DNA of 55,908 bases from Rhizaria sp. SCN 62-66 (taxonomy: Eukaryota). Positions 12,235-55,908 of the stretch are shown in pieces. The stretch lies in the NCBI GenBank assembly GCA_001724265.1, contig MEDY01000023.1, positions 124,001 to 179,908 of the forward strand, written 5' to 3'. Below the pieces are notes generated by a model. It saw only the letters and a list, made by a program, of their open reading frames with translations. It did no database searches and had not been told where the DNA came from. The position numbers and the translations under genes were made by a program. How positions within the stretch are numbered: the stretch's first letter is position 1; every line of letters begins with the position of its first letter.

Positions 12235-15200
12235 TCAGCCGACCCGCGGCCTCCTGATGGGCCCGCGCGGCGACGGCGTCTCCGTCGCGCCCACCGAAAC
12301 CGCCCCCGCAACCGTGACCGTCATGTTTCCGCCGCTGCTGTTGCTCACGGGTGTCATAATGACCGTGGTGTTGCTGCTGCCGGCGCCGCTGGCGGGCGAC
12401 TGCGCCTCTGAGCCCAGCCCACCCCCGTGCGGCACCGACAGCGCTTGCGTCAGCACGGTCCGCCCGCCCCTCTGCTGCTGCTGCTGCTGCTGCTGGTGTT
12501 GCTGGTGTTGCTGTTGAAGAGCGAGCTGTTGCTGGTGTGCCTGTTGCTGCGCGGCGCTCAGGTGCGGCTGCGGCAGCGGGGGCATGCCGGCCCTGTTGCT
12601 CATCGCCTGATGCTGCTGCTGTTGCGGTTGCTGCTGCTGAGGGAGTGTGCCGTTGCTGCTGCTGTTGCCCACGAACGTGAACCCCGGCCGACTGCCTCGC
12701 GCCGCACCGGGCGTGGCCGACTGGCCAAACACAGCCCTCCCGCTGCTGCCGCGGCCGACGGCCATGTCCGGCGACGGCGTGCCGCGGTACGTCGCGTCGT
12801 GCGCGTGCGTGGCGGCATCTTGCCCCGGTCCGCCGGCGCCGGCGAGCCCGTCAGGTCCGTTCTCGCCAGAGTCGCTCGTCTCCGTCGCCGACGACGGCAT
12901 CATAAACGCCGAGAACGCCGTGTCGACCGACGCAGTGTGGTGATGACCTCTGCCGGGCCCGTTGTGGGGCCCGCGGCGCGACTGCCCGGGGCCGGGGGAC
13001 GGACCGCCACTGCCGCTGTCATCCAGCTGAGCGCCCGCGCCGTGTCCACCGAGAACATGATTGTTGCTGTAGTTGTTGCTGTAGTCGATGTAAGAGCTCT
13101 CGCGGCCAATAGTCGGGACGTTGAACATCGTCGTCAGCGACTGACGCGCAGCGCGCCTCTGTGAGCCTGTCAGCTGCTGCTGCTGCAGTTGCTGCTGCAG
13201 TTGCTGCTGCTGTTGTGCTTGTTGCTGACTTTGCGCCTACAGCGGCGGAGTCCTGCTTGGAGCCGCCCTAGCGCCGGCGCTGGCGTTTGCGATATTGTTC
13301 GCGGCAGAGAGACGAGAGACACTCTACTGCGAGCCACCCCCAGCGCTATTGCTGAAAGGAGCGACGGGGGTCGATGCCCACGGCGCGCTGCCATGAGCAC
13401 CAGCATTGGCAGAGCTGTTATTGGTGTTACTATTGACAGTGCCAGTGCTAGCGGGCGCGGGCGTTGCAGCCAGCATCGCTGCCGGCGGCATGCCCCCGCC
13501 GCTGCTATTGCCATTGCTCAAGCGCGGCCCGTTGGCGACGCGCGCGGCAATGCTCGACGCCTGTGGCGCATTCTCCGCGAGCACGCGCTCGACGGGCACG
13601 CCAGACGACATCGCGGCCGCCGCGAAGGCGTGGAACGAAGGCACGACGGCGCGGTTCTGCGCGAGGATGTGCGCCGCGACGAACGAGTCGGCGTCCGTGG
13701 CCAGCGCCACGCGGCGGAGAAGCTGCAGCTCGCCGGGCGCAAGCGCGAAGCCCACGGCGCCGACCGTGAGCAGCAGCGTGACTGTCTGCGCGCGCACGGG
13801 CCCCGCGCCAGCGGACGCGGGGGCCCCGGGCGCGCCCGCGGCGGGCTGCGGGCGGCGGACCTGGAACGAGAGCACGTCTCCTGGCCGCGCGAGCCGCAGC
13901 AGCGCCTGAAGGTGCGCGGCGCCGCGCGGGACAACGCCGTCGACGGCCTCGATGATGTCCCAGGGGCGGATGTCCGCCGCGGCCGCGGGTGTGCCTGGAG
14001 TGACGGAAGCGACGAGCACGCCGCCCGCGGCCGCCGAGCCCCAAGGGCTGCCGCCCGCGCCGCCGCCAGGGCCGCCGGACTGCGGGATAAGCCGCGCGTT
14101 GTCGCCGCAGACCATACCGAGCAGCGGCCGCAGCTCGGTGAGCTTAGCGCGCACTTCGCGCGTCAGCACCTTCTCGCGCGGGAACATGTCCGCGGGCAGA
14201 CTCGCGCCCGCGCTAGCGGGCAGCGGCGTGCCGGCGGCAGCGGCGGCGGCGTGGTCGCGGTCCTGCTGCGCTCGCAGAAGCTCGTTGTGGTGCTGCAGCG
14301 CGGACTGGAGCCGCGCCTCGAGCATCGCAATGCCGCTCGAGAGCTTGACGACTTGCTGTTGCCGCGCGGCGGCCTCGGCGCGCGCCTTGTCGAGCTCGCT
14401 CGCCATCGCGGCGAAACGCTCGTTTTGCTCTGCGCCGCTGCTGTTGTCGCCGCCCGTCGCGGTGCTGCCGCGACCGCCGCCGCGCGTGACGACGACAGTG
14501 CTCCCGGCAGCACCGCCACCAATGGCGGAGGCTCCGTCGCCGGTACTGTTGGAGCCGCCGTCGCCGACGGAGCCCGCGCCGTCCTGCTGCGACTGCTGCT
14601 GCTGTTGCTGTAGCTGCTGCTGCAGCTGCTGCTGTTGCTGAAGGTACTGCTGCTGCAGCTGGTTCTGGCGCGTCAGCGCGCCGACCGCGCGCCCCGGCGC
14701 AGCGCCCGGCGCGCCGCCACCGACGCCGCCACCAGCGCCGCCAGCGTTAGTGCCAGCGCCAGCTCCTGTCCCGGCGCCGGCGCGAGAGATGCCCGCCGTC
14801 GCCGCCGCAGCGGCCGCGTACGCGCTGGCCGCCGCCGCCGCGCTTCCCGTAGCGCCCCCGGCCGCGCCCGCGCCGCCGGCCTCGAGCGCCTTGATCGTGG
14901 CCAGCGCGGACGCGAGCCGGCCCTGGACGAGCCCAAGCTCAACCTGAAGCTGCTTGTGCTGGTGCGCGGCACGCGCGGCGACGCCCTGCGCTGCCTGCGT
15001 CTCCTGCTCCAGCGCGAGCCGCTCGCGTGAGACGCGGTCCTGGTCGCCCCGCAGCGCCGCCGAATCGCGCTGTGCCGCTAGCAGACGCTGCCGGTCGGCG
15101 CGGGCGCGCGCCCACAGGGAAGACAAGTCCGCGCGCAGACGGTGGAAGGTGGACTGCGCCGCCGCCACAGTCGTCGACGTGGACGTCTCGCCCTCGCTAT

Positions 15201-18200
15201 AGCCAGCGCTCGCGCCTAAGGTACTGGTGAACGCGGAGGAGTCGGCGATCGCGGCGAGCTCGTCTTCAATGGCCTGCCAGGGGTCGGTCTCGACGCCGGG
15301 AGCGTTCGCGTTGACAACGCCCGGTGCGTTCATCTGGCCCTTGCCGCGCGAGCCGCGCTTTCCGGCCGCGGCCCCGGCGGCACCTGCAGCCGTCGCTGCT
15401 GGAGCGGTGCCGCTGCTGCTGTGCGCATTGGTGGTCTCGATTGCAACGGCGCGCGCGAGCGCCGTTTGCGTGGCCGTGACGACCTTGAGTGCGCGCGACA
15501 GTGCGGCGCGCTCTGCGAGGGCGCGGTCGGCCTCAGCCTTCTGCTGCGCAGCCGCGGCGTCGGCCCGGGCTTTGGCGGCGCGCGCGGCCGAGAGCTCGAC
15601 CGTGACGGCCTCTTCAGCAGCACGGCTGCCGTCGCGGTCGCGCGTAGCCTGCAGCAGCTGCCGCTTGAGCATAGCGACGAGCTGCTCGAGCTGTTCGTTG
15701 CGCGCCAGCATCTGTGTCGACGGCGACTGCGACGCCGCCTGCTGCGCTGCCCACAGCGCGCGCTGCAGCTCCTTGAGCGACGCCGTCGCCATCGCGTTGC
15801 GCTCTTCCAGCGCGGCAACGCGCGCAGTTGCCGCGGCGTCCTCGAGCGTCTGCGCGCTAAGCAGAGAACCGCTGCGCCCGTGGCCCGCTCCGATATGCGC
15901 GCCTACTGCACCGCTCTTCGCACCGAGCTTGCCGGTCTTGCCGCCGCGCTCAGGCTTCGCGCCAGCCGTGCCCGCGGACTTGGTGTTCGCGGCGTTCGCC
16001 AGTGAGCGGCGGCGACGGCGCGTCGCAGCGTGGCCATCGTCGTCGTAGCCGCCCTCCGGAGCGTTCTCATCGTCTTCGTCGTCATCATCGTCATAAGGGC
16101 CATCGTACTCATCGCCACCGTTGCCGTCAAAACCGTTGGCCTCCGACAGAGCGGCGGCCGCGGCGGCCTCGGCTGCGGCGACGGCCTCCGCAGCCGCGGC
16201 AGCGCCCGCAGCCTGCGCCGCATCCAGCGCAGCCCGCGCGGCCTCAGCCTGCGCGCGCCACTTCGCGGCCTCAATCTTGGCGTCGCGTGCGTCGTTCTCG
16301 GCCTGCGCCGTGCGCTCCTGCTCCTCAGACAGGCGCCCCGCCAGCACGGCCCGGTCGCGCGCAACAGCCTTCTCGCGCGTCACCGCGTCGGCCCGCGCCG
16401 CGGCGAGTTCGCCCTCTTTGAGTGACAACGCGCCCTCAACCGCGGCCTTCTCCCGCAGCGCGCGCTCTTCGGCGGCGGCGAGCGCGCGCACGTGCGCCAG
16501 CGACGGCCGCGCGTCCTCAGCTGCTCGCAGCGCAGCGACTTCCACGCGTCCGGCCGCGAGGGCAGCGCGCGCGGTCGCGGCGGCGTCCTCGGCGACGGCG
16601 CGCGCGGCCCGCTCCGCGTCAAGCGCCTGCGCTACGGCGAGCAGCTCGCTCTCGATCGCGCTGTGCCGCTGCAGAGACGCCTCGTACGCCTGTGTGCGCG
16701 CGTTGAGCGCGGCAGCGTCGGTCTGCACGCCGACGTCCGCGACAGTGGGGCCGGAGCCGGCGCCGCGGGAGCCCAGCGCTAGGGAAAGCGAGACAAGCGC
16801 GGTGGCCACGTCGTCGCTGTCGCCGGCACCGTCGGCGCTGCTGGCGAGGCTGCGGCGCGAGGCGGCGATGGCGCGCGCGAGAGAGAGCGGCACGGTCACG
16901 TCGCGGGGCTGGCCCGTGCGCGGATCGGCAACCTTAAGCCGCAACATGTGCCCGCCGTCGTGGCTGTGGCTGGTGGCCACCTCCGCGTCATTGGCCGCAG
17001 TGCTGCTCTCTCTCGGGACTGACGCGTCAAGGCCGTTCGCGGCAGTGGCGTCGTCGCCCTCAGCATCAGTCGCAGTGCTTCTGGTGATCTTGCTGCTACT
17101 AACGCTGTTGTTATGGCTCACGTGCGTGTACGCAAGCGAAGGGTTGCTCGCAATGGCGCGCGCCGCTGCTTCCGCAATCGCCATTGCGTATGCGAACGCG
17201 GCGTAGGGACCGCGCGGCACGATGAGCGTGCGCCACGAAGGCTGCGACACGCGGCCCGAGGCCGGATCCAGCGCCCAGCGGTAGCGCTGCGTGGCCACCG
17301 CCGTGTCACTGCCGTCTGCACCGGTGGTACCAGGGCTAGAAGCACAGTCAGCCGCCGCCACCGCCGCATCGCTGTTGTTCCCATTGGCGCCGCTAACGTT
17401 GGTGTTAAGCGCGATTGCAACGAAGTCAGCGCCGGCACCCGCGCCCGTGGCGGCCGGTGACGCGGTGACCGCGCCCGGGGCCGGCGCGTGCGGCTGCGCG
17501 GGACCGAAGCTCTGGTGTGGCGCGTGATGATACGGCAACGCCCCGCTGGCGTTGCTGCTGCCCGCCGCAAGCGCGCCGCTTGGCGTCAGTTTAGAGCGGC
17601 CCAGGTAGATCTCTTTGTCGGCGCCTGTGGCCGTCGCGCCCGGCACGAGTCCCGCCGGGCCGTGTCGGAACCCCTGGTACCCGTGTCCTTGCGTGCCGGG
17701 CGCGTGGTTGTACGCTGTGGCAGCCCCGGTGAGGGGGGCGGCACCGTCAGGCCCCGGCACAGCGTCGTGAAACGCATAGCTCCAGCCGCTGAAGACTGGC
17801 ACGGCCGCCACAGCCAGCGCGCCGTGCTGGGTGGCGCCGCGCGGAAACGGTGCACCGTCGTCGCCGTCGGTATCCGGTGCATCCATACTGAAGAGGCGGG
17901 CGGTCGGCGGCGGCGATGGCGAGCGCGCCGCGGCGTGGCTGCCCGGCGTCACCGCGCGCGTCGAGGTGAATGCGGTGCGGTATGAGTACGACTGGCCCTG
18001 CCCCGGTGTGTTCGAGGACGGCAGGCCTGCAGCGGCGACGCCGGGGGTTTTGCTGCTGCGTAGTCCGACAGAGCGCGTGTATCGGCCAGGTGTGTGCGGC
18101 GCAGCGGCCGCAGGAGTGCCCAAACAGGCCTTGGACGCAGTTTGCGTCATTCCAACACCGGTAGGGCCCTCGGCGCCAGCCTTCGTAGTTTCGTTAGCGG

Positions 18201-18885
18201 AACTGGAGATGTTGTTGTTCGAGTTGCGACTAGCAGAGTCAGAGTCTGCGGCGTCGAGCGCGGCGACGAGCGCTGCGGCCGAGACAGGTGTCGCGGAGGC
18301 CGTGGGCGCAGATGCCGCGAGCGGAGCCAGCGATGGAGGTAGCACTGGGCCCATTGTGGGCGACGACACACCGCTCGAAGCGCCGGGAGCATTGTTCAGG
18401 TTGTTAATTGTGTTGGAATGTGAGCCGCGAGCGGAGTACGGCGACTGCGGGCCGGGTCCGCGCGGAGTTGACCCGGATGCTGCGCCATTGCCCGCAGCAG
18501 CGCGGAACGACAGCGTGGAAGCCGCGGGGAGGCCGGGGCGCGAGATGGGCGGCAGCGCGCCCGTGGCGACGTCCTGACCGCCGACCTGCGCCGCCTCCGC
18601 CGTGGTGAGCATTCCGGCGGCCTTGAGATGGTGTTGCGCCTCCGCCAGCGCCACAAGTGCGGCCTGACGCAGAGCCGTCGCTTGCAGGTCGACTGTGGTC
18701 GACGCGCTCGCCGTCGCGGAGGCGGACATGGCACTCATCTTGGCGAAGTTGCCACCGCTGTTGCTGCCGCTGCCGTCCGTGCTACGGGCGGAGTGAGGAT
18801 CGGCGGTGGTGTCGCCACCATGCATGCGCGCGGCCGCCGCCTCCTTCTTGCGGTTGCGCAGAAGCTGCGCTTTGACGCTGTGCAT
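12235..18885 (-). CDS. Large coiled-coil plus PDZ-domain protein (2216 aa if two in-frame TAGs are read as sense)
   Basis: PDZ-like segment at about 14125-13850 (GVLVASVTPGTPAAAADIRPWDIIEAVDG...PGDVLSFQVRR) and long coiled coils. ORFs 13324-19026 and 12235-13128 are in the same frame and separated only by TAGs at 13324-13326 and 13237-13239. First ATG is at 18885 and the final stop is TGA. Confidence 0.75.
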
Positions 18886-19257
18886 TACTGGGACGTGAGA
18901 AGCCCGCAATGAAGGTGGGCTGTGCTGTGGAGAAAGGGAGAAACGGACTGTCAGCACCACAAGGGATTCACAAGGATTAACGTTTGATGAGAGAGTTTTG
19001 AAAAGAGAATAAAAGGAAAAGTACACGACTTAACTTAATTTGATCGTAACACAAAACATCCACGATGAAACCAACCCGCTAGTGATACTTTTCAGAAGCT
19101 CGACCGAGCAAGGTTGATCGTGGCTCTCCATGGGGCAGCAACTTGGATCCAAACTTTCAGCACATAGCTCTCTCAAACCTGATCGTCGTCAGCAGTACTG
19201 ACGTGCTCAATGACATAGGTTCCTGTTGATGAACTAATTCTTGTTTTAACAGACTGC

Positions 19258-23700: not shown

Positions 23701-23778
23701 GGCAAACACCGCACCCGCGGGGTCAGACCAGTCGATGCGCGCACCGACGGACGCGTTGCCGCCCGCGGCAGTGACGAC

Positions 23779-23809
<31 letters not shown>

Positions 23810-26800: not shown

Positions 26801-28445
26801 CGCAGCAGCGGCGTCTCGCGTGAGCGCGCCAGCGTGTGCGCGATGGTCGTCACAAGCGGGCCCGAGCACGCGTCCGCGAGCGCGATGAGGGCCTCGCGGG
26901 ACACAGCCAGCGGGGACGCGGCGAGCGAGCACTGCGCAGGGGTGCGGGGCGTGGCCGCGAGCGCCAGGTCGACGTCGCGGATCGAGCCGGACGGGAACGC
27001 GCGGGCCGCAATCGTCGCGGCCTCGGCCTCACGGGCGCGCTCAGCAACCCTATGGGATGATAAGGAAACGAAGTAGATACTAGATGAGAAAGATTCTTCA
27101 AGGAAGCACTTATTTAGAGAGATAATAAAACAATGATACAAAATAATGATACTCCGTTTTACGTTTTGGTAGTGACGTACTTGGCCTTCTCCTTGTCGGC
27201 CTCGGAGGCATTCGCGTCGAGCGCGGGGAGTGGGGCTGGGATCTCCGGCGCGGACCGCAGCGCGGCGGGGCGCAGCTGCGGGCGCTTGTGCAGCGCCTCG
27301 GCCACGGCGCTGCGCGGCAGCGATAGCCCGTTGCGGCGCGCGGCGGCAGCGGCAGCAGCGGCCGCGGTGGTCGACGCAGTGGGGTTCGCGGGGGCCGGGC
27401 GCGGCGCGAGGTCGGCTGAGAGCGTGGCGAGCGACGACACGAGCCCGCTGAGCACGGCCGTGGACATGGCGAACACGCCCGCCTCGCCGAGGTCGCTCTG
27501 CGGCGGCATGCCCGAGGCCGTCGCGGCGAGCAGCTGCCCCGCGCCGGCGCCGCGCGCGCGAGGCCCGTGCGGGTGCCACAGCGGCGGCAGCACGAACGCG
27601 CCGCGCTTGGCCGCGCTCGCCGCCAGCGCCTGCTGTTGCGCCACATTCCCCGCGCCCGTAGACGGCGCGCCGGGCGCCGGCATCGTGTCAGGCACCGCGA
27701 TGGCGTCCGCGGCGGCGTGTGCGATGCGCGCGACGGCGTGCGCCAGCGCGCCGCACAGGTGCGCAGTGAGGCCGGACCCCGAGGCGGCGGCCGTGGCGGC
27801 CACCACAGCGGCTTGTGCGGCGGCAGCGGCCGCGGCGGACGGCGACTGCGTGCCTTCACTGAGATCGACCACGGCCCCGTCGTCGCCGCCGCCGCCCGCG
27901 CAGGCGCCTGCAAGCGCGGCGGCGATGGCGGCTTGCGCGGCCTCGGCGGCGGCGGCCTCGGCGGCGGCGGCGTCGCCGACGTACGCCAGCGCGTGCAACG
28001 CTTTGGGCTGCGCGCACAGCACGGCGAGCGCGTCGAGCAGTAGCGCGCGCTGCGTCGCCGGCAGCGCGGGGCGGAGGCCGCGGGTGAGCTGCCCCACGAG
28101 GCGCGCCGCCGCGGGCTGCAGCAGCGGCATGCCGCCGTAGCGCTGCGAAAAGGTCACCGCGGCGCGCACGCCCGACGCCACCAGCACGTTGGTCTCGGCC
28201 GCGGCGGCGTTGGCGGCGGCGATCGCGGCGGGCGTCGTCGGCGCGGGCACGGGCGCGAGCACGGCGGAGAGGTGCGCAGAGAGCGCGGGCGCGACGTCTG
28301 AGGCCAGGACGGCCGTGAGCACGGGTTCGCTGACAAAGAGACCGGAGTGGTCCGCCAGCGCGGACTCGAGCAGCTCAGCGGCCGCGGCAGCGGGCATCGT
28401 CGACAGCGCCAGAGAGAAGAAGTACCGTGTGGGGCCCGTGGTGCC

Positions 28446-28476
<31 letters not shown>

Positions 28477-29762
28477 GCAGCAGCCTTGACGTTAGCGGGG
28501 GCCGGGGCGCGCGCGGCGGCGGCTCCGCGCGCGGCGGCGGCGGCGGCGGCGCGGAGGCGCGTCGACAGGTCGAGGATGACGAAGTACGCGTTGCGCAGCG
28601 GCGCGGGCAACGAGAGTGCCTCGGGCGGGAAGAAACCCACGTAGTCGGCAGCCGACGCGGCTGAGAAGCTGTTGTTGTGGTTGAGGTTGCTGTGGCTGAT
28701 GACATCCGACTGCGAGTTCTGCGCAGGCGTCGCGGGCGCAGCAGAAGAAGCAGCAGGCACAGCAGCAACGGAGGCGGACGACGCATCGTCAGTACTCTTC
28801 TTGGCATTGTCGTTGCCGTCATCGTCCTCGAGGTCAAAGTCGGGATTGGTGTCGTTGCCGATGCTCGACCGCCGGCGCGGGGCCGCCGCGGCGGGCGTCG
28901 TCGTCGCAGACGGCGTGTCAGCCGCTGCGCCAGTGGCCGTAGCAGCGGAGCGTGGGCGAGCTGGCGTGTTTGGCGTCGTGGCAGGGCCGGGCGGCGCGGG
29001 CGGGGCCGTACAGAGCGCGAGGAAACCCTCGGGGTCGCTGGAGCGGACCTCAGCGCGCGCGGCACCGGCGGAGACGGCGAGGTCAAAGAGCAGCTGCAGC
29101 AGGCGACGCGCGGTGCCAGCCGCGGTGACTGAGACGGCGGGGGCGCGGTAACCGACGAGCGCGAAACACGCGGAGAGCGCGCTCGCCATACCCGTGGTGA
29201 CCATCGCGCGCGTGCCGGCGACGGAGGAGGACACGGCGATAAGCAGCGTCTGCAGAGCGCGCAGCAACGGGCGCTCCCACTCGGCGACCTTGTCCGTCGT
29301 GCTCGCGGCCGCGGCGGCGCAGGCCTCGGAGATGGATTCGGTGATGGCGGAGGAAAACACGGCCGAGTGGTACACGGTCGAGAGAAGCTGGAAACCGTGC
29401 AGCGCGTTCGACAGCAGCGCGGGGTTGCGCGTCGTACAGGCCAGACGCAGAGCCTTGAGCACGGTAGTGCCCTCAACGGAGGCGTCGAAGGCGGCTGACG
29501 GGGCACGGCCACCGAGAATGGCCGTCAGGTGCGTCTTGGCCAGGTCTGCGGCAGCGCGGACTTCGGGCACACGCTTGGCGTCGGCCTCAATGGTCTTGAT
29601 GCACGCCAGCAGATCGGGCAGCTTGGTGCCGTTGAACTCGGACGACGGCGCAGGGCGCGGGGTCCACATCGGACCGTCGCCAGCAAAAGGCACCGGCACA
29701 AACACCGTTGTCGCCGTGGGCGCCTTGGCCGCAGGTGCGCTGCTCGAGGAAAACAAAAACAT
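20737..29762 (-). CDS. MON2: Protein MON2 homolog (Sec7-family-related Golgi/endosome scaffold); exons 29762-27181 and 27049-20737 (about 2964 aa)
   Basis: DCB-like N-terminus (IEADAKRVPEVRAAAD; LRLACTTRNPALLSNALHGFQLL), FAVACGALGAVGPRDQCINTLC, NVAFSAINLLW, LDARSEVRNSAARVLF and the MON2 signature HYRRDTFEKQWDETRVLGLQG. Intron 27050-27180 (GTACGT...CATAG) joins the two ORFs in frame. Stop is TAA. Confidence 0.9.
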
Positions 29763-30593
29763 CAGGCGTGTGTAGGAGGAAAGATAGCTCCTGGAAACGC
29801 CGAGAGGGCGAGAAAACGCGCAGAGGCGGCAGGGTACAGCGAAGGGAAAGGGCGCGCTGGGACTTTAGAGGCTCTTGGTGCGAAAGCCTGGTTCCAAGAC
29901 AAATAGAGCGCGAGAAATCATGGAAATGTGAGTATGGAAAATAATAAAAGGTATATCGAGAGTGTCGCAATCTTTTACACGACATTTAATGATTGGATGT
30001 GCGCTTCTACCTGCTGTAATATCGATTTTTCCGATGTTGCCCTGGGCGAGAGTGAGGCCATCGCGACCATCGGCTGGTGGAGAATCGTCCCAATAGGTCT
30101 CGAACTGTCGTTGAGACCCATGATGGTTGGATAACGGCTGCTGAGTGCTTAGCAACGAAGCGGTGAAGAATTATTTCTGCTCTTCAAATCGTAACCATAT
30201 GAATATCACCTCACCACCAGTTACAAGTGCTGGCACTTGCTTATGCACGACTCTGAGTCTCTACACAGTGAGAGTGCGTCTACGGTTGTCGTTTGGTCTT
30301 CGTCTGCGCTAGTTTTGTTTGCCAAACCGCCGCCTCGATAGCAGCACTGATGAGTACGAGGATCGGAGATGACTTGACATGTTTTTGGATATGCAACGCA
30401 AAATTGTTGAGCGTGGGTGAAATGTTAAGCTGTGTATGTATTAGATATTAGTAACCTTTAACCGCGCGCATATTCAATCTATGACGCCCAAATCGTAAAA
30501 CTTCTCTCCCGTCATCATGCCATGTGAAGTGACTTAACCGTCTCTGACCATTAGTGACTACATTTTCGTAAGTCTGTGTCTTGTATAGTTTGC

Positions 30594-31576
30594 TTAGAAG
30601 AAGCGCTTCTTGATGTTGCCCTTGCCCATGGTGTAGAGGTCGGGCTTCTTGACCTGCTCGGGGTACTCGTTCAGCAAGTACTCGGCAATGTCATACGACA
30701 GGTCACCGTTGAGCGTGATGCCCTATTGTTGTGTCGGAAAGCGCAACGCGACAAAGTGTGATCGAGGAAGAATATTGGGGCGAGTGCAGCGAAAAGGCGT
30801 GGGAAGCGGCAGTGGTATCGCGAAAGTGGGGAAAAAGTGAGTGATTGGTCGGAGCTGTGTAATATATATAGTATATCCAAAGGAGGTCTGCATCAGAACT
30901 TGTTATTCTCGCCGAAGTCGACATTATATTGAAGATTGTGGCCGTGTGCTGATTCACTTGCGCGAGGACGCAGTATAATCATGTCAGGTATAGAAAGGTA
31001 TGAACAAGTTGGACAGCGTTGGCGTTGCGGGGATAATAAAGGTTGTTGTGTAGCACGTACCTCGGCGCTGACGGAAGCGGAGGTGGCGAACTTCTTGGAG
31101 AAGACCTTGGCGATCTCCTTAGACTTGAGCCCAACGGACTCGAGGCCAGACACGGTAGTTACGTGCTTGCGTCGCGTGCGGTCCTTGGTCTGGATCACGA
31201 TCTCGCGCTTGGTCGCCTTGGCCGCAGCAACGGGTGCAATCTCGCCCTCATCATCGCCCTCGTCCTCGTTGTCCTCGTCGTCCTCGTTGGCGTCGCCGTC
31301 GCCGTCAACGTCCACAGTGTCGACGCCAGCCTCGCCGTCCTCGTCGCCCTCGGCCTTGGGCTTCGGCGCCGGCTTCGGCTTCTCGCGGCCGGAAGAGATG
31401 CGCAGCGCGCGCAGCTTCTCTAGGAGGTCCGGGTCAGTCTTCTTGAGGTTCGCGGCGCACGTCTCCCACTTGGGCGAGTACTCGCAAAACTCGAACGGGA
31501 ACGAGCAGTGCGGGCACAGCTCCACCTCCTTGGGCTGCAGCAGACTGGTCGTTTGTTCCTCGTCGTCGCTACTCAT
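30594..31576 (-). CDS. DENR: Density-regulated protein / translation machinery-associated protein 22 (SUI1 domain); exons 31576-31061 and 30722-30594 (214 aa)
   Basis: Zinc motif CPHCSFPFEFCEY...C and SUI1 domain (KDRTRRKHVTTVSGL...FSKKFATSASV|GITLNGDL). Phase-0 intron 30723-31060 (GTACGT...AATAG). Stop is TAA. Confidence 0.92.
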
Positions 31577-32996: not shown

Positions 32997-35900
32997 ATGG
33001 GAAAAGACGCTTGCGGCAGTTCGCTCACATTGGGCACTCGCCTTGTCCTCACCTTTATGGGTGCGACGCTGTGCCTCGCGCTGGCCTGCGTCGGCGGCTA
33101 CGTATGGTCGCGCGAAGGCTGGTTCAACTTCGCCGGCCCCATCTGGCCGGATCCGTGGTATGGCTACACCGCGGGGGGCTTCTTCGGTCTCCTCGCGCTC
33201 GTCTTCCTCGCCCCGCTTGCCTTCACGCTGTACTTTGTTGTCGCGCAGCACGCCCTGCGCCGCGCGGGCAACTCGTCCTCGCTGTGCAGCTACGTCACTG
33301 TCAACACCGTCGTCCTCTCCGCGCTCGCCGGGCTCGCCGTCGGCGGCTGGTACTACGCGCGCTTCATCCTCAACTGCGGCTTCGGCTTCCTCTGCGTGCA
33401 CGAGGAGAACCACTTTGTCCCGCCCGGCCCCGATGGCGTCCCGCTCGCCGGCGAGGCGTGGTGGGCCACTCTCGGCGCTAAGATGTTCTTCCCAGCGCTG
33501 CTCTTCCTCGCCACCACGCTGATGGGGCTCGTCTCGCACGTGGTGTACCGCCGCCACTACCACCGCATCGCCGCCGACGCCGCAGCTGACGCGCAGGACA
33601 TGCCGCTGCTGCAGTCTCCGTCTTCCCTGCTCGAGGCCCAGCAGTATGGCATCACCAACGGCTCCAACAACAGCAGCGGCAAGGGCTCCAACAAGGGCGG
33701 CAACAAGAACCGCTCCCGCGCGGCGCGCTCCGACGCCGACATGGACGACGTGTATCACCGCCTGGGTGCCGGCAAGCTCTCGGCCGACGGTGACGGTGAG
33801 AGCGACGGCAACAAGTACGCCTCGCCCGCCGACGCCGCGCGCGCGATGAGCCGCACAGCCGACAACACGGCCATCGGCGCCGGCCGCAACACGCCCAGCG
33901 CGCGCGAGTGTCCCGGGCTCGGTCTGTGGGTGCTGCTGCTAGCGTGCCTCGCCGCGCTGGGCGTGCTCTTCTGGCTCTCGACTTATTTCCCCAACAACTG
34001 GGAAAACTACGCTCCCTTTCGCCTGGCGCAGGCCGCCAACGAGACCATGACGCAGGACCCCGAGCTCTGCGGCAACTGGCCCTACAACTCATGCCCCGAG
34101 CTCCCCAGGGTCCGTGTTTCTTCTGCTTCTTCTTCCTTACATGCAGCACAGAAAAACAAACTGTATCAGCTTTCACATGTATTGCCTTGCATTATCTCAT
34201 ATCATGATTGGTATTCGTCTGTTTTACTCACTTGTACTGACGTTCTGACCTCACCGACCGACACTTGTTTGCTTTATTTCGTGTGTGTGTGTTTTTGCTT
34301 TTTTGTTGTTGTTTTGCTTTGCGCTGTCTGGGATCTCTCCAGGCAGTGTTCACGACTGTAAATGCGGAGATGGCCCGTTACTGGAACCTCAAGTTCTACC
34401 CTTCCAACGTCATCTTCTACCTCTTCCTCGCCTCCGTGCCCGTGCTCGCCATGCTGTTCCGCGCCACGGCCACGACTGACGCCCTGATGTCCCGCAAGAT
34501 CCGCGTGCGGCGCTGCTCCTTGCGCGAAGCCCTGACTTTCCAGTGGGGCACCTCAGCGGTCGCGACCCAGCCGGCGCGGCTTGCGTTCTTCACGCTCCGC
34601 GAGATCGGCGCGGTGCTGGCCACGGCCACGGCGGCCGCGCTCTTCTTCTTCTACTGGGTGCATGACCACAACTACGGCAACAGGTGGCCCGGCGGCCAGG
34701 TGTCGTCGATCGAGGCGTGGTGCCGCTCGCTCGGACAGCTCGCCACCTTCTTCCTCGCGCTCCTCATGTTCCCCGCGGCCCGCAACTCGCCCGTGCTCGC
34801 GCTGCTGGGCGTCTCGTGGGAGGCCGCGATCCAGTACCACCGCTGGCTCGGTGTTGCGTTCCTCGGCGCCTCGCTGGCCCACATGGGCACTGCCTGGGGC
34901 TGGTTCGGAGACCTCGTACGTGATGCACTTCACTAAAACAAAGATAATTCTTCATAATACTCTCTAGTTAGACGTTTCAAAATATATGTATATGTAAAAT
35001 TCGGTTATATTTCTATATGACTTAAAATTTATTCTCAACTAACATTTATATTCTGTGAATCTATCTTTTGTTTTCTATTCGTAGGGCGGTTTCCCCGCAG
35101 ACGTGTTCCAGCTGCCGCAGACGCACGCGCACTCGAAAGACAACTTCACCGTCCCGCTCATGCAGTGGGTTATGTGGATTGTCATCATCACCATCGGCGT
35201 CTTCTCCCTCCGCGAGAAGATCCGTCGCACGTCGTTCGAGCTCTTCCTCTACGCGCACCACATCACCTACTGCCTGCTCATCCCGGCTGTGCTGTGGCAC
35301 GCGCAGGCGTCGTGGGAGTATCTCTTCCCCGGACTCATCATCTGGATCGTCGACCGCGCCGTACGCGCCTTCCGTTCCGCGCGCGCGCTGCGCTTACTCC
35401 CGCTGCCCGTGCCCGCCAATGCCACGCCTGCCTCCATCGCCGCCAACAACACAGGCAACAACGCCAACGCGGCGGTGGCCGAGGCGGGGGGCGTGGCAGC
35501 CGCGCCGCAGACCGTGCTGGGCGCCGTCGCTGCCGACTACGGCGCCGCTGGCCCCATGGTCGAGCTCCGCGTGTCCGGCGACGCGTTCAACTACAAGCCC
35601 GGCCAGTACGCGTTTATCAACGTCGCCGAGGTGTCGCTGTTTGAGTGGCACCCGTTCACCATCGCGTCCCCCGTGCACGGCACCGCGCGCAACGAGATCG
35701 CCTTCCACATCAAGGCCATGGGCGCCAAGACCTGGACCGACGCGTTGTACCGCTACGTCGAGGACCGCCAGCTCCGCGCGGGGCTCAACCTGCCGCTCAC
35801 GCTCTCGGTCGATGGCCCCTACGGCACGCCGATCGACTTCAAGGCCTACGCTAACGTCATCCTCGTCGCCGGCGGCATCGGCGTCACGCCCTGCAAGTCC

Positions 35901-36611
35901 ATTTTTGAGTCTTTGCACCACTCGTACCTCGCCAGCCGCGCCGCCGAGCAGCAGAGCGGCGACTCGAGTTCCCTCGTCGGCAGCGGCAGCGCCGCAGCGG
36001 CGTACGGCTACGGCCAGGCGGTCAGCGGCGGCGCGGCCAACGGGTCGGCCCCGCTCGCGCGCCGCGTGCACCTGCTCTTTGCGGCGCGCGACGCCGCTCT
36101 GTTCGACATCATGGGCGACTCGCTCACGGCTCTGCCGCAGGGCCCGTTCTCGGCGCAGCTGTTCCTCGACGTCCCGCCCGAGGCCGCGGGCGCCGGCGCC
36201 GTCGCGGCCGCGCAGCGCGGGCTGCTCAACAGCTCCGTCGCGCCGGGGGCCGTCGCCACAGCCGCGGCGGCTAACGGCAGCGCCAACGGCGCCGGGGCCA
36301 GCACGCCCTTCGCGGCGGCCGCGGCGGCGCGCGTGGCGAGCCAGTTCGGCCACCTGCTCGTGCGCGGGCGGCCTAACTTCTCAGAGACGCTGACGGCTAT
36401 CGCGCGCCGGTCCGACGTGCTTGTCGACCCCGCGTACGCCAGTGATCCCACGCTCAACACCGGCTACGGCAGCGGATACACCGACGCTGTGCACGCCAAG
36501 AAGAATAAGACGCTTGTCTTCGTGTGCGGCCCGCCCGGAATCACGGCCGCGTGCGAGGCGCTCGCCCACGAGCAAGGCTGGGACTTCCACACCGAGACCT
36601 TCGCGCTCTAA
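32997..36611 (+). CDS. Ferric reductase / NADPH-oxidase superfamily flavocytochrome with a long N-terminal membrane extension; exons 32997-34109, 34343-34915 and 35085-36611 (1070 aa)
   Basis: Heme His pairs (YHRWLG...AHM; YAHH...WHA), PGQY, WHPFTI (FAD), DGPYG, VAGGIGVTP, FVCGP and the C-terminal FHTETF. Introns 34110-34342 (GTCCGT...TCCAG) and 34916-35084 (GTACGT...CGTAG) are both phase 0. Stop is TAA. Confidence 0.92.
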
Positions 36612-37975
36612 GTGCAAGTGCTGACCTCAGCTGAGGTCGAAGTGCCACACACCCTTAATGACCTGAGTGAGCCTGTGTGTGTGCGTGTTCACATCGCGAC
36701 TGTGTACATTGCGGTGTTTTATTACTCTATTTGTGATTGTCGTCCGTCTATACTAGCTTATTCCTGGGGAGCGACGCGTGTCGCGCCCTGTTATCATCCA
36801 ACAATACAGTGTGAAAGCATTTATCATTCGGACTTCGTTTCACAATCAGAGGCCAATGACTGCAGCATGATCTTCGGTGCAGCTGTAGATCATGCTTATT
36901 TGTCGTGTTAAATGTGCACACACCGTTGACACTTGTGTCGATACACAATGATGTTGTAAGCAGAGACGTGATATACAAATTAAGACACGATTATCATACG
37001 AGTATTTGTGTTTGATAAACCATGGGTGTATAGAATTCAGTGAAATATCATTATATTTGTTGTTATTATAAAATCTAATACAATATTTCGCAGCATCATA
37101 TCAATATATCTTTCCGCTATAATATTTATCGCATTATTTCGCAAAAATATTTCGCATCTCCGTAGCTAAGTACAATGAAAAGGAGCCACGACACGGCCGC
37201 AAGCCCCCCCAACGCCGCGCTGCGCCGCCGTAACATCCGCAAGACATGTATAACGCACGCCGCTGTTTGCGGAAGCAGCAGTGCAGTGAGGATATGATGC
37301 CGCGAATGTGGCGGGGACGGGTGAGTCGAGAGGGGGTATGTCAAGCCGCGGTGGCAGGGCTAGAGGAGCAAGTGGTGCACACTTGCTCTCGAGAAAGAAG
37401 AAAAAAATTAAAAGGAACAAAACACACGAAAAAAAAGAAAAGGGAACAAAAAAATATACACACTTTAAAACAAACAATGACAACAACATGAAAAAGAAAA
37501 CCACCGCCTGCGCCGCCCCGGCCAGGATCGCTCCAAAGCGATAGCCAGAGACGGGCGCGGACGAGCGCTTTTTCTTTCATTCCCTCGCCAACTCGTAAAA
37601 ACAAAGAATAAACACGGGCATAAGCACCGTCGCAGCAGACACACTGAGAGAAAAAGGCACAGTGCTGAAAGGTCTTGCTCGCACCGATAACGATATCAGT
37701 CTCGCAAAGCTCTCTGCGTGTGGCGGCGTGTGCTCTTAAAATGATGCGAATTTTGTCAAAAATGTGTGCTTTGTTCGTCAGCCAGTCAGTCGAGACGACG
37801 TCGCAACGTAACTACGACACCCTTTCTTCTTCTGCGTGCTTATTGACTTTCCTGCTTGGTTATTGCTCATTTTTAGCCGTGACTCAACTCCGCTGTCGTG
37901 TTATTTGATGAGTGTTGACCTCCTAAGTAGATACTTCCTTGTGTAAGTAGTCAGGTCCTTACATAGTTCGCTAAC

Positions 37976-39448
37976 TTACTTGTCGTCCTCATCGTCGGCC
38001 TCCTCGAGCTTCGCGCCGTCGTGGTCGCCGTGCTCATCCTCGTCGCCGTCGTGACCGTCGAGCCCGGCGCCGTCGTCCTCGAGGTCGATGTCGGCGTTGT
38101 TGGAGCTCGCGTACCGCATGAACTCAGAGATCATGAACTCCATGTTGCTCGACGGCCCGCCTCCGCGCTTGACGTTCGACTTAGTCGTCGGCAGGTTGTG
38201 CTCCTTCTCGAAAGCGATGATGCGCGGCAGGATCTCGTCGAAGTCGTAGCCGTTGGCCGCGAGGTCCTTGCGGTACGCCTCGTCGAAGTTCGGATCGTCG
38301 GCGTGGCGGTGATACGGCCCCGCGACGAACTCCTTGACGTCGTACTCCTGCGTGTAGGCGTTGCCGTTGCCGATCTCGACCAGCATCGCCGTGTGGTTGT
38401 CGCGCGAGCCGGCGGCGATCGACGCGTTGATGATAACCGACAGCACCTGCGCCAAGTCCCACGAGTCGTCCTTGACGCCCAGCGACGCCAGCTCATCGAG
38501 CAGGATGCGCACGACGTCCTCGTAGCCCAGCTGCTCGAAGACGCCGTCGCAGCACACAAAGAGCAGGTCCGTCGGGTGCAGCACGTGAGTCTGGTAGTCG
38601 GGCACGGCGATGACCTTTTGCTTACGCGCGTCCAGCCGTGGGTTTGCCTTGTACACGTAGTCGCCCACGGCGCGGGACAACGCAAGGTTACCGTCGACGC
38701 GGCCCGCGGACACAGAGCCCTGTAATAGAAGAGACGACAGCAAGCACAAAGAAAAGAGCAAGACGTGAAGTGATGAGTGACCGAGGAGAACAATATAAAA
38801 ATCGATCTAGAAAACAGATTTTGATATTAAAAAAAGCAAGAAAAGGTCTTTCGCTCGTCGTTATGTGTGATACTAGATAAGTATAGAGCGTACCTGTGCG
38901 TCGAGGATGCGCATGCGCTCCTCGTCGTTGTCGGGTTTGTGGTCCTGCGTGAGAGCGAGCCACGAACCGTCGCGGCGGATCACCATGGCGCGCGAGTCGC
39001 CGACATTGACGGCGAGCAGGCGCAGACCGAGCTTGTCGGCGGCCACGTCACCAGGGGCCGCGACGGGCTCGTTGGTGTCGATGTCGACGGGCTGGGCGAC
39101 GACCATGCACGCCGTGGTGCCGTGCTCGCGGTTGGGCGTCGCGAGGAAGCGCGCGTCGAGGTCCAGCACCGTCTGCGTGATTGCGTCCTGCGAGAACGGG
39201 TCCGAGAGCTTCTGGAAGGCGGGAGAAGCCTGGTTGTGCATGAAGATGGCAGCGTCCTTTCCGCCGTGGCCGTCGAAGACGCCGAAGTGCATCACGTTGG
39301 GGGACTTGAAGCCGTCGAGAACGATCGTGTGCGCGTCCTCCATGTCGTTGCGGAAGCCCTGAACGGAGACGACGGCGGCGCGGATAAATTCGTTGCCGTG
39401 CCGCTCGACGAACTGAGAGGTAATGGGGGCAGAAAGAACACCACCCAT
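37976..39448 (-). CDS. Protein phosphatase 2C (PPM family, Ptc2/3-like, possibly N-myristoylated); exons 39448-38894 and 38719-37976 (432 aa)
   Basis: MGGVLSAP start, QGFRNDMEDAH, FGVFDGHGG, GTTA, NVGDSR, DHKP, RVDGNLALSRAVGD, CCDGVF and GSRDN. Phase-0 intron 38720-38893 (GTACGC...TACAG). Stop is TAA. Confidence 0.95.
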
Positions 39449-40984: not shown

Positions 40985-43079
40985 GTACATGGGGCCGAGT
41001 TTTGCGCCCCCGCCGGCGTCGTTTTTCGCTGAGCCCGAGCTCTTCCACCGCCACGGCATCATCGACGACACTCTCCCTCCCAACAACAACAATAACAACG
41101 CATATCTTAACAGCAGCAACAACTCTTACAACAACGGCGGTGATATGTCCACCTACGCGAGCAATGCGGCAGCGACGTTGACGAGTGCGTTCCCAGCCTT
41201 TCTCGACGCCGACTCAGGCTACGAGCCCCACACCATGCACGTCGCCTCCATCCCTGCCTCCTCTGCTGCCCCCACTATGACAGCGCCCGCGGCGGCGACA
41301 GCGGCGGTGACTGGCAGCGCGCCACCGCACCCTGTGGCGGCCGAGTTTGTGTCCACGATCACTGCCGCTCTGCAGGCCGTGCCCGCCGCCAACCTCGACC
41401 GGTGCCAGGAGGCACTCGCGATTGTTGAGGCGGCGCTGGCCAGGCTCGAGGCCATGGCGCCACCGCACGCGCACGCGCTCGTACAGCAGCAGATGCAGCA
41501 AATGCAGCATGCCAACAGCAACAGCAATGGTGGCAATAGCAGTAATGCGGAGAGCAGCTCTGGTGTCGCGTTTAAGCGCACGTCCTCAGCTTTCGCCAAC
41601 GAAGCCGCCTCTGCTTCCGCCGCCGCCGCCGCCGCCGCCGCTGCCGCCGCGTCCGCTGCTACTATGGCTCTAACCGATGCCTCGCCCGTCAGCGCGCCGG
41701 CGCCCTCCGCTTTAGCTGAGACTGCGCCGGAGACTGCGACTGCACTGGTTGCTTCAACCGAAACTGCGCAGGCGCCGGCTCTGTACCCCGCAGTCTCGCT
41801 GCTGCCCGGCGTCAACGGCTACAGTCCCCTGGACAGCGGGGGCGCCCGAGACAGCAGCCACCACGCCCCCCTGGACAGTCTGAGCCGCGCGCACAGCGGC
41901 CTCAGCAGCCTCAGCGGCCTCGGCGGCAGTGGCGGCGTGGGTCTGCACTCGCAGTCGTCTCTGCAGCCAACGCTCATCGCGGCCCCGGTCGACGCGCGCC
42001 TGCACTCGCTCTCTGGCACGCCGCAGCGCTCGCTGGCGCTCCTCCCCAGCCACGGCCACGACCACGGCCACGCCGCCTCCGGCTCTGGCGCCAACTCCGT
42101 CTCTCTCAGCAACAGCAATAGCAACAGCACCGATGTGAATGCGGAGGGCAGTGGGAACCTCGTCAGGGGTGCGTCTGGCGGCAGTCACGATGCGCTCGGG
42201 CTCGGCCGGGTGATGACGGTGGACGCGCTGGCTTCTGGCAACAATAACGACGTCAGCACGCTCAAGAGTAGGAGCAGTTCTAACACTGTCGACAAGCGCG
42301 ACAGTGCTCCTCCTGCTGCCGCTATTGCGACTGAGATTGGGCCTGCGTCAATGAACAACAACAGCAACATTGCAAGTGGCGACAATACAGACGCGAACGC
42401 TGCTGGGAGTGATGTCGACGTGGGTAACGCTGCTATTGTGGGCCCTTGCAGCACTTTGCCCCCCTTGGACGCACTCACTCCCTTCGACGCGCTGCCGCCC
42501 TTAGACGCTCTGCCGCCCTTAGACGCGCTGCCCCCCTTAGACTCGCTGCCCCCCTTCGACGGCCAGGACAGCAGCAATTACTACGCAGGCCTCGCATCGA
42601 TCTACCCCTCTGCAGCCGGCAACTGCAGCAACGGCAACGGCACTCACATCGACCACTACATTAACAGCAGTGCCCCCGCGTCTGCGACTGCGCCTGCTGC
42701 CCCGGCGACTTTGACTGCTGCGGGCGTCGACGTTGCTGCTGCGGCGGCGGCGGTTATGGATGAAGAGGTCGCGAGCGCGGCGCGGCTGTCTGCACAGCGG
42801 CAGCGGCTGCAGAGCCAGGAGGAGCGGATCCGGGCCGACGCGCGCCGCCTCGCCGAGCAGCAGGAAGAGCTTTGGCGCCAGCAGCTGCTCATGGAGCGCA
42901 TCGAGCAGGAAGAGGAAGCGCAGTACTGGAGCGGCAACGGCAACGGCACCGGCACCGGGAGCGATCGCACTGCTCTGGGGCTGGGACTGAGGCCCAAAGA
43001 GGTAGATGACGGACGTCACGCCGCTTCCTCCACTGCCGCCGCTGTGGGCAATGCGGGCGTTGAAGTCGCGGGCCAGTGA
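40614..43079 (+). CDS. Uncharacterised low-complexity protein with short coiled coils (821 aa)
   Basis: Long ORF from ATG 40614 with poly-Q/N/A tracts like those of neighbouring genes, flanked by AT-richer sequence. Stop is TGA. Confidence 0.7.
42456..42563 (+). repeat. Coding tandem repeat, 6 x 18 nt, peptide (LPPLDA)n
   Basis: LPPLDA LTPFDA LPPLDA LPPLDA LPPLDS LPPFDG, with synonymous variation between units. Confidence 0.9.
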
Positions 43080-53671: not shown

Positions 53672-54458
53672 ATGTGCGTTTGAGTCTGCAACCAGTCATT
53701 TGTGTCGCAGGCTGCAAATGGAGGGAACTCACTTACTCGCATGGCAATCTAACACAATGCAATAAAGCTTATTTTTGTATGATTATGGGACTATTATAAA
53801 GATGTAGTCATTTTTTATTCAGCGCTAGATATTATAAAGACACAAACCCCTATTTTTCTCCGATGTCTGTGGATTTGAACTACGTAATATTCATTGTAAG
53901 CTTGCGTCGGAAGCAACCCAAAACTTGCCTCAATTTTAAGAGTGAAGTTCCGTTGTGACGAATGAATGTGCCGGCATGGGATACTTGGGGCATATCTCTG
54001 TTCTAGAACCACCGCAGCATCGCGGCGTCCAAAGGCGCTTCCGGCACACACGACATCATGCGACCAACGGGTTCAGCGCCACGCAGAAGGTGAACCGAGT
54101 AGCCCACGCTCCTACATCGCGTCGTAAAGCCGGAGAAAGAAGAAAAGATGCCACGCTGCCTCGTTTGCTCATTATAAAGTTTTGCCCGCATGACAATGTC
54201 AGATGTTGTCATATCGGGCTCGTGCACCAAACAGCGCGTGCAATCCGCAATGCGTTCGCGCGCCCGAGGCGGTCTAGTGGCCTACAGGCTACCGCGAGCC
54301 GGGTGACATTAGGTCACTGGAGCACATCAACACGATTCTCGGTCTCGCTGACCGCACGGGGGCAGAAGATATAAGGCCTTGTGACGCACGACATTTTACA
54401 TATTTTCGCGCGTAACAGGCCTACCTTGACGTTACCTACGCAGCGTACTGTTAGACAG

Positions 54459-54711
54459 TGCTTTACCACCCCTGCGCGACCACCCCTGCGCGAGCACTTG
54501 CGTTGACGGGGTCGACGGCGCGGTCATTAAGGCGGTCAACAACATCTTCAAGGACGGCAGCGAGAGCTTCTGGGCGCAGATCCGTGACATCCACAAGAAG
54601 GGCGCGCGCCGCCTCAAGCGCACCACCAAGACTCAGTGCAGCCCGGCGCAAGTGAAACGCAAGCGGGGTCGGCCCAAGAAGAGCGGAAAAGGAAGTGTGT
54701 GTACACAATAA
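54459..54711 (+). pseudogene. Orphan coding-like exon or gene fragment ending in an AT-hook
   Basis: Open frame ...CVDGVDGAVIKAVNNIFKDGSESFWAQIRDIHKKGARRLKR...KRKRGRPKK...TAA(54709-54711) with GC3-rich codons. It has no in-frame ATG, and a 14-nt tandem duplication lies at 54465-54492. Confidence 0.45.
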
Positions 54712-55378
54712 ACACAACCTTTATTTCGCGACAGGCAATTGTTGTACGAAGGAGATTTTATGCAGAATGTCGACTGTAACAGTATTAATACATCAGATTT
54801 GACAATCCATAAACTTTCTCATCACACAAAATCGCCGTTGTGATTGTGCGCAATTGGTTAGCAATCTCACATTGCGATTGCTCACACTTTGACTCCACTG
54901 TTAGAGTTAGAGGATCCAAGTCCAAGTGGAAAAGGTCGATTTGTATTGAGTTATTATGATATCATGAATTGCACCAAAGTGGTACCAATTCCATCGGTTA
55001 GTTCTGGAGACTTCCGGAACTGTGGAATTGCTCACAGTAACATCCACGACCTGCCCCGACCCAGAGGTCTCAAAAGAGCGTCGCTCACAGTCACGTTAGA
55101 GCCTAACGGTCACTCGAGGAGGCGGCTCTTAGAGGAACTTTTGGGTGAGGAAAACGGCATGCAGACAGATGTTCTTGATATGAGAATGGTTGCTTATTGT
55201 TATGTTTGTTGTGTTCTGTTTGCTTTGTTTAAAGGGTCGAGTTGATGTCGCCACCAGCGCAGCGCGGAGTTGGACCTTTTTGGTTGCTCGCCCTTCTTCA
55301 CACTGACCACGGAGTGGTTTGCCTCTTGCTAACCGTTTACCTTTTGTTGTTGTCTGTTTGCTTTCCTTACGCAGAGAC

Positions 55379-55781
55379 ATGGCTACGCCCGAGGATCGCA
55401 TGCTGGACTCCGTCCTCCGTCGCCTCGAAGTGGCCAACCAGGCCCTGTTTAAGACCGTTGGCAAGGAGGCGCGCGAGACCATCCAGGCCCAGCTGACCGA
55501 ACTCAAGCTGGAAAAGGACCTTATTGTGGCCAAGATTGAAGTCCGCAACAAGATGAACTCCGTCCTCCATCGCCTCCAAGAGGCCAACCAGGCCCTGTAT
55601 AAGACCGTTGACTAGAAGCTCCGCACGACCATCCAGGCTTAGCTGGCCGAATTCAAGCTGGAGAATGACCTCGCTGAGGCCAAGATGGACGCCCTCAACA
55701 AGGTGGACGGGGCTCAGGAGCGTGTTACTCGCTCCCAAGAAGCCCTCGACGCCTTCAAGCGCTCCGCGGCGGCACCTGTCG
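55379..55781 (+). CDS. First coding exon of a coiled-coil repeat protein containing two in-frame TAG codons; gene continues beyond the window
   Basis: ATG 55379 follows CTAAC/polypyrimidine/CAG. Two 50-aa repeats follow. The frame stays open, apart from TAGs at 55613-55615 and 55640-55642, up to a consensus donor G|GTACGT at 55782. Confidence 0.7.
55406..55702 (+). repeat. Internal tandem duplication with a period of 150 nt (50 aa)
   Basis: Copy 1 DSVLRRLEVANQALFKTVGKEARETIQAQLTELKLEKDLIVAKIEVRNK versus copy 2 NSVLHRLQEANQALYKTVD*KLRTTIQA*LAEFKLENDLAEAKMDALNK. Confidence 0.9.
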
Positions 55782-55865
55782 GTACGTTTCTGTCTGCTGT
55801 TGCTCTTTGCTGTTGCTCTGTTGGCGTGCTTGTTTTGACTGCTGTTGTTTAGTATGGTTGGCTCA

Positions 55866-55870
<5 letters not shown>

Positions 55871-55908
<38 letters not shown>
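55871..55908 (+). repeat. (CT)n microsatellite inside an intron, running to the window end
   Basis: Perfect CT dinucleotide run downstream of the donor at 55782. Confidence 0.95.

Follow-up and report, generated by a model that had tools for sequence, protein, structure and literature searches.

Two in-frame TAG codons interrupt an exon near the end of the stretch of DNA analysed here (55,908 nucleotides, hereafter the window), and in the gene family to which this exon belongs TAG is the only codon that breaks otherwise intact frames whose splice sites are kept. A second gene, outside the family, also contains in-frame TAGs, and none of the gene ends marked by a drop in GC content is a TAG. 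We hypothesize that UAG is decoded in this organism, through a reassignment that would be rare and young or through strong readthrough, and we regard this proposition as evenly poised. Under this hypothesis we infer that ribosomes pass the TAGs. UAG would probably not be read as a stop, or would be read as one inefficiently, in an uncultured, GC-rich, intron-poor eukaryote; the two TAGs of the exon would be translated, with TAA and TGA as the working terminators. TAG would be a rare codon, tolerated at unconstrained positions only, and the state would be that of an early or low-usage stop-to-sense reassignment or of strong constitutive readthrough. The main alternative, which we hold to be somewhat short of evenly probable, is that the standard code applies and that the exon's gene and two of its relatives (L002 and L003, below) are inactivated members of a rapidly evolving family with intact, expressed members. 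In that case TAG would dominate simply because, among the codons that a single change turns into a stop, AAG, CAG and GAG are the most frequent, and the second gene, which encodes a PDZ domain, would end at its first TAG and carry a recently dead C-terminal tail. Both a translated TAG and a broken copy are compatible with the present data.

Exon 1 and its internal repeat

Exon 1 (55379..55781, plus strand), a member of a multi-copy family, consists of 134 codons plus one base (phase 1), and its translation is coiled-coil-like. A single frame runs on the plus strand from the ATG at 55379 to the G at 55781, and the TAGs at 55613 and 55640 (site a, 55613..55615; site b, 55640..55642) are its sole interruptions. 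Codon-usage scores were 0.68 before the first TAG and 0.69 after the second, whereas intron and upstream sequence scored about 0. An earlier note on this DNA had described the frame as running on to a perfect GTACGT donor, and this was borne out: the frame is kept to 55781, the donor stands at 55782-55787, and GTACGT is the consensus donor of the organism. The window holds the start of intron 1 (55782..55908, plus strand), which comprises the donor, a T/G-rich tract, and a (CT)n run up to the window end. The plus-strand region upstream of the exon (55123..55378) is conserved in the family and is probably a promoter or 5' UTR; BLASTN matches with three paralogous loci (L002-L004) begin at 55118-55123. 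Two other readings of the locus were rejected. An antisense ORF (55367-55906) is open throughout, yet it has a codon score of only 0.26, below the 0.51-0.52 of the plus-strand frame. A 36-nt GT..AG mini-intron (55607-55642) would remove both TAGs; the known introns measure 109 to ~345 nt and have GTACGT-type donors.

The exon contains a direct, ungapped tandem repeat of 150 nt (copy 1, 55399..55548; copy 2, 55549..55698; both on the plus strand), identified by alignment and by Tandem Repeats Finder (score 410), and the similarity of the copies is far beyond chance (self-BLAST E = 1.6e-37). They are 81% identical, and both TAGs lie inside copy 2. Codon-by-codon alignment agreed with the pairing that had been described previously, in which site a faces AAG (Lys) at 55463 and site b faces CAG (Gln) at 55490. 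The accompanying statement that all other differences between the copies are synonymous or conservative proved to be wrong. Half of the 50 aligned codons differ (25), and these comprise 3 synonymous changes, 20 non-synonymous changes, and the 2 TAGs. The 29 base differences are distributed over codon positions 1, 2, and 3 as 11/11/7, and non-conservative changes include A>L, E>T, I>A, V>E, and R>L. The dN/dS ratio between copy 1 and copy 2 was 1.9 (p = 0.32 against 1).

Family copies and their TAG sites

Metagenome contigs were scanned with the exon 1 translation, and four loci were found (L001-L004). L001 equals the window sequence, both TAGs included, except for one 37-nt gap, and it continues beyond the window end: its intron 1 measures 191 nt (GTACGT...CTGCAG), and its exon 2 is open for 89 codons until the contig ends. 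The other three loci are paralogues, with introns of 109 nt (L002), 111 nt (L003), and 121 nt (L004). Intron position and phase, donor, and acceptor are kept in 4/4 loci; the same exon is found throughout, which supports its being real and its frame being carried into exon 2. L003 contains the whole gene, 619 codons that end in TAA TAA and are followed by an AT-rich, stop-rich tail. Over the 220 + 192 + 619 + 195 codons of L001-L004 there was no in-frame TAA, no in-frame TGA, and no frameshift; in exon 1 the repeat structure confounds indel counts made at the nucleotide level. Decoding is favoured by these loci because TAG alone interrupts the frames while frames, splice sites, and coding signal are kept, and the same observations speak against broken copies. 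A family DNA word and a family protein profile gave no match in the genome-contig or viral-contig collections.

Five distinct in-frame TAG sites were identified among L001-L003, namely sites a and b and three sites in exon 2 (c, d, and e), and there was none in L004. Read with the standard code, the window copy has 2 in-frame TAGs, L002 has 1, and L003 has 4. The comparison with paralogues that the earlier note had proposed gave the following partners. Site a (partners K/M) is a TAG in the window and L001 only; other copies have AAG or AAA, and once ATG. All three runs with contigs at 55613 (X5, X4, and X2) have A there, giving AAG, and run X1 is without cover. Site b (Q/K) is a TAG in the window, in L001, in L003, and in contigs of X2 and X4, two runs of different studies, and it is CAG in L002 and in the poly(A) run X5 and AAG in L004. 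Site c is a TAG in both L002 and L003 (K/E/N in other copies), and sites d (G/D) and e (K/W) are TAGs in L003. Site b is thus common to the window/L001 copy and to L003, whose exon nucleotides differ by ~10%; a TAG held in common by copies that have since diverged to this extent favours decoding and counts against inactivation.

The positions of the TAGs point in the same direction. The exon-2 TAGs of L003 are, in 3/3 cases, in columns that vary among the other copies, while 27% of all columns vary. Among columns with codons one step from TAG 30% vary, and random placement of the TAGs gives P = 0.02-0.03. Nor does L003 have an excess of private amino-acid changes: over the same 276 columns, in which the compared paralogues are free of stops, it has 16 and they have 19, 12, and 3. 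Its divergence does not exceed that of the stop-free paralogue pieces P0017 and P0018. These results, too, favour decoding and argue against L003 being a broken copy. On the other side, the number of TAGs in L003 is, by a rough estimate, about that expected from neutral decay, and stop-free exon-2 copies exist (P0023, 485 aa; P0016, a 401-aa piece without the C-terminal end), which disfavours decoding and suits a family made up of intact and inactivated members.

Past site b, dN/dS of the window copy was 0.59-0.72 (p = 0.15-0.53 against 1), and in exon 1 it was 1.8-2.2 (p = 0.11-0.21 against 1), with ~100-130 codons per comparison in both cases. The dN/dS check suggested for the segment after 55615 therefore gave values below 1, but not significantly so, and a broken copy remains compatible with them. 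Divergence among the family copies was 9-13% in coding sequence, no lower than the 7-9% of the upstream non-coding DNA (284-nt region). Both the dN/dS values and this comparison of divergence are points for broken copies and against decoding. The earlier remark that the pattern is not typical of a decayed pseudogene holds in part: frameshifts, TAA, and TGA are absent and the splice signals are kept, but dN/dS is indistinct from 1.

The RNA and depth data also bear on inactivation. In the poly(A) RNA run X5 the sole contig over 55613/55640 is a TAG-free variant (AAG, CAG), which counts against decoding and for broken copies. One X5 contig extends into intron 1 and so shows no splicing; the comparison was with contigs only, in which neither uncovered parts nor a missing splice joint at 55781 carries weight in either direction. 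The single-copy DNA contigs of runs X1 and X4 reach no further than 54342, and beyond this point there are short variant contigs with a summed depth 7-15 times higher. The region 54343-55908 is multi-copy, a further point for broken copies, and the repeat boundary is marked by the contig ends. This boundary probably explains why the window contig ends in a (CT)n run. Most contig joints and loose ends seen in read placement stem from GC-rich low-complexity repeats.

A further explanation, which we consider very improbable, is an assembly artefact: the short-read contigs would be mosaics of copies or strains, and the combination of TAGs would perhaps be present in no single gene. It is consistent with such mosaics that X1, the run that contains most of the window, is without a contig over 55613, that there are several variant contigs per place, and that L002 and L003 are identical over their first ~480 nt and divergent afterwards. 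However, the TAG at 55640 recurs in two runs from different studies and in L003, the L001 match to the window is exact at both TAGs, and mosaic assembly creates no TAGs and would leave the single-copy PDZ gene unaffected. The L002/L003 pattern, and a sharing of sites b and c that does not fit one tree, could result from gene conversion between copies or from a chimeric assembly. At ~55228 the window lacks 37 nt that L001 has (~720-760) and that, by eye, are seemingly present in L002-L004; the difference between the window and L001 is either an upstream deletion allele or an assembly variant. RIP-like C>T hypermutation was rejected as a source of the TAGs, 3/5 TAG sites being most simply derived by A>T from AAG (by eye only).

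The pairing of TAG with CAG across the repeat had been presented as the most direct evidence for Gln, a claim that the comparison with paralogues does not support: the partners are mixed, and the BLOSUM62 sums for the partner residues of the five family TAG sites were K 8.8, Q 5.4, and E 4.6. Gln is not established, and the aligned residues are compatible with Lys at least as well. Every family TAG site is at a variable position and none coincides with a conserved residue, which leaves the alignments without an indication of the amino acid. In addition, AAG, CAG, and TGG are one-step neighbours of TAG, and any new TAG will therefore show such partners, whatever its meaning; partners of this kind are also in line with broken copies.

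The family is a multi-copy, fast-evolving one in which exon 1 would form the coiled-coil start of the protein and exon 2 possibly encodes a protein-kinase-like domain. The exon-2 product had no Pfam match at E <= 0.01. The family profile gave weak matches to PknG (E 0.007) and PKA (E 0.06-0.3) in the PDB, over a stretch with YIDLRPSN...IDLEF, which we read as a putative kinase catalytic loop, and the nearest Atlas clusters of the exon-2 product are partly kinase-like. An AlphaFold2 model of P0023 had a mean pLDDT of 34 and was unusable. We also observed two C-terminal forms in the family, which differ by reading frame (L003 2310-2420; P0022-P0024). The short form (L003, P0017, P0018) stops shortly past PAKK.R, and the long acidic form (P0022-P0024) uses the same nucleotides in another frame; there L003 has TAA for Glu.

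Other genes of the window and the PDZ gene

The window has a GC content of 51% to 79%, ORFs of up to 2981 codons, AT-rich spacers, and few introns. It encodes ArfGAP, PDZ, Mon2, ferric reductase, PP2C, and DENR/SUI1 domains (Pfam), and its sequence is present in bioreactor and wastewater metagenome runs. Elsewhere in the window four introns could be verified, either through homology spanning the gap or through the reading frame: in the PP2C gene (38771-38890, GTACGC, donor match 38888-38893), the ferric reductase gene (GTACGT, donor 34916-34921), the DENR gene (GTACGT, donor at 31060, match 31055-31060; the intron ends in TAG), and the Mon2 gene (GTACGT, donor at 27180, match 27175-27180). In the parts that were read, the introns of the PP2C and ferric reductase genes are AT-rich; they end in TAG or CAG. 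A protein search with the PP2C exon gave matches of <= 33% identity, a search with the ArfGAP protein found nothing beyond the window's own protein, and the Atlas neighbours belong to fungal or oomycete clusters, which are no more than leads to the affiliation of the organism. Over five introns, including that at 55782-55787, the 5' splice site is nearly invariant (four GTACGT, one GTACGC). The donor at 55782 is credible because GTACGT occurs only 15 times in the window, both strands counted; the hexamer class GTRCGY as a whole is under-represented (189 found vs. 292 expected).

Three observations concern individual genes. The Mon2-like gene (20737-29864, minus strand) consists of two long ORFs that lie in different frames, share the stretch 27159-27687, and are joined by the intron. 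On the plus strand, the frame of the ferric reductase gene is open for another 100 codons past its TAA (36609-36911) with a moderate coding score, and this stretch may be a further exon or a product of chance. An 18-nt tandem repeat of 5.8 copies (42457-42561, plus strand) lies within an 843-codon ORF without a known domain.

Gene ends marked by a GC drop (n = 11) use TAA in 7 and TGA in 4 cases and TAG in none, a tally from a small sample; if the family copies and the PDZ tail were dead, the first PDZ TAG would have to be added to it as a terminator. The absence of TAG terminators favours decoding. A purine follows the stop at 10/10 tabulated terminators of the window, and C follows 3/7 in-frame TAGs; this shows only that the TAGs are not in a terminator-like context, as is expected under both explanations. 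A scan for stops with a coding score on both sides was too noisy to be used, owing to shadow frames and AT-rich UTRs.

The second TAG-containing gene is single-copy, encodes a PDZ domain (12235..19029, minus strand), and reads as 1901 codons, TAG, 28 codons, TAG, 334 codons, and TGA, with its terminator at 12235-12237. At the first TAG (13324..13326, minus strand) GC is 0.63 upstream and 0.61 downstream, with no drop. The second TAG (13237..13239, minus strand) is followed by the 334 codons of a Q/S/G-rich tail with GC1/2/3 of 0.69/0.56/0.81. Across both TAGs GC remains at 0.60-0.65, and at the TGA it falls from 0.71 to 0.31 (0.27-0.41 directly after it). The segment between the TAGs has a codon score of 0.26 in frame vs. 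-0.48 and 0.0 in the other two frames, and the tail falls at the 31st percentile of 334-codon windows from real genes. These data count against the recently dead tail that the standard code calls for, as the tail scores as normal coding sequence and stops exactly at the GC drop, and the 3' region of the PDZ gene would be the sole GC-rich, ORF-like case among the 11 gene ends. The presence of TAGs in a gene outside the family likewise favours decoding.

The inter-TAG segment of the PDZ gene does not look like an intron of this organism: its GC content is 64%, GTRCGY donors are absent from its vicinity, and the splice candidates within reach are all non-consensus. Two such candidates were rejected: GTAGAG...CTGTAG (91 nt) shifts the frame and leads to a stop after 22 codons, and GTAGAG...CAAAG (99 nt) keeps the frame but departs from the donor consensus, uses AAG as its acceptor, and lacks a pyrimidine tract. 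When the junction region was compared with 1.84 billion representative proteins, a single weak, low-complexity match and no orthologue spanning the TAGs were obtained.

Beyond the PDZ gene the window speaks against frequent use of TAG. Ten other genes or exon sets, with ~10,500 codons and ~370 Gln codons, contain no in-frame TAG, and TAG is thus present in only 1 of ~11 non-family genes. Decoding is disfavoured because this is far below known UAG-sense usage, and the same count is a point for broken copies. With the codon usage of the window, 64-73% of one-step nonsense mutations lead to TAG, and ~3% of random substitutions create a stop. This dominance of TAG among expected nonsense mutations weighs against decoding and for broken copies; for all of the in-frame stops (7/7) to be TAG, plain decay gives P ~0.07. 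The TAGs form a close pair in both genes, which is predicted by neither explanation. No tRNA (ARAGORN) and no RNA family (Rfam) was found in the window, and decoding is further disfavoured because the window holds no tRNA.

Comparison with known systems and meaning

To our knowledge, UAG-only nuclear reassignments are confined to very few lineages, and all described cases known to us are mature ones, in which UAG is common and occupies conserved residues. UAG encodes Gln in Iotanema spirale and Leu in the rhizarian exLh, and the counts for these organisms are 384 UAGs in 71 genes and 204 in 126 genes (1.6-5.4 per gene), at hyperconserved Leu or Gln positions (PMC5304391). The window resembles these two systems in that UAG is the only in-frame stop, terminators are UAA and UGA, no UAG acts as a bona fide terminator among the genes examined, and UAG usage is uneven among gene classes (PMC5304391). 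It differs from them in that TAG is rare, is at variable positions, and corresponds to no single amino acid, and in that the case for decoding is built on DNA sequence.

GC-rich DNA with long exons is unlike ciliate genomes. The window, with its GTACGT introns and with TAA as a terminator, differs in these respects from the ciliates with altered codes. UAG is reported to have been reassigned in phyllopharyngean ciliates (PMC11687900), and one ciliate is reported to read UAA as Lys and UAG as Glu (PMC10553269). These cases resemble our proposal in that UAG can switch meaning alone, and also to residues other than Gln (PMC11687900, PMC10553269).

The family also resembles the nonsense-bearing pseudogenes of big, fast-evolving families, in being multi-copy, in a dN/dS near or above 1 in a variable domain, in its premature stops and intact paralogues, and in signs of mosaicism or gene conversion. 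It differs from such pseudogenes in that there are no frameshifts, TAA, or TGA, the splice signals are kept, and the TAGs are at variable columns only. A search of the literature on code variants in wastewater eukaryotes returned nothing relevant.

A more specific form of the decoding hypothesis is tentative, and we think it rather doubtful: the organism may be in the early phase of a change of UAG from stop to sense, in which UAG has been purged from gene ends and is tolerated at unconstrained sites in fast-evolving or disordered proteins, through readthrough or a new suppressor tRNA inserting Lys or Gln, and in which conserved genes have not yet been reached. As far as we know, the stage of stop-codon capture has so far been discussed mostly in theory.

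A standard gene caller would cut the PDZ gene short and split the exon-1 family, even if the copies are broken; in that event the case would be an ordinary one, still relevant to annotation. If UAG is decoded, the organism would add a lineage to those with a UAG-only change and would stand out by how little the codon is used, and UAG that is gone from gene ends yet very rare inside genes would be a snapshot of stop-codon capture.
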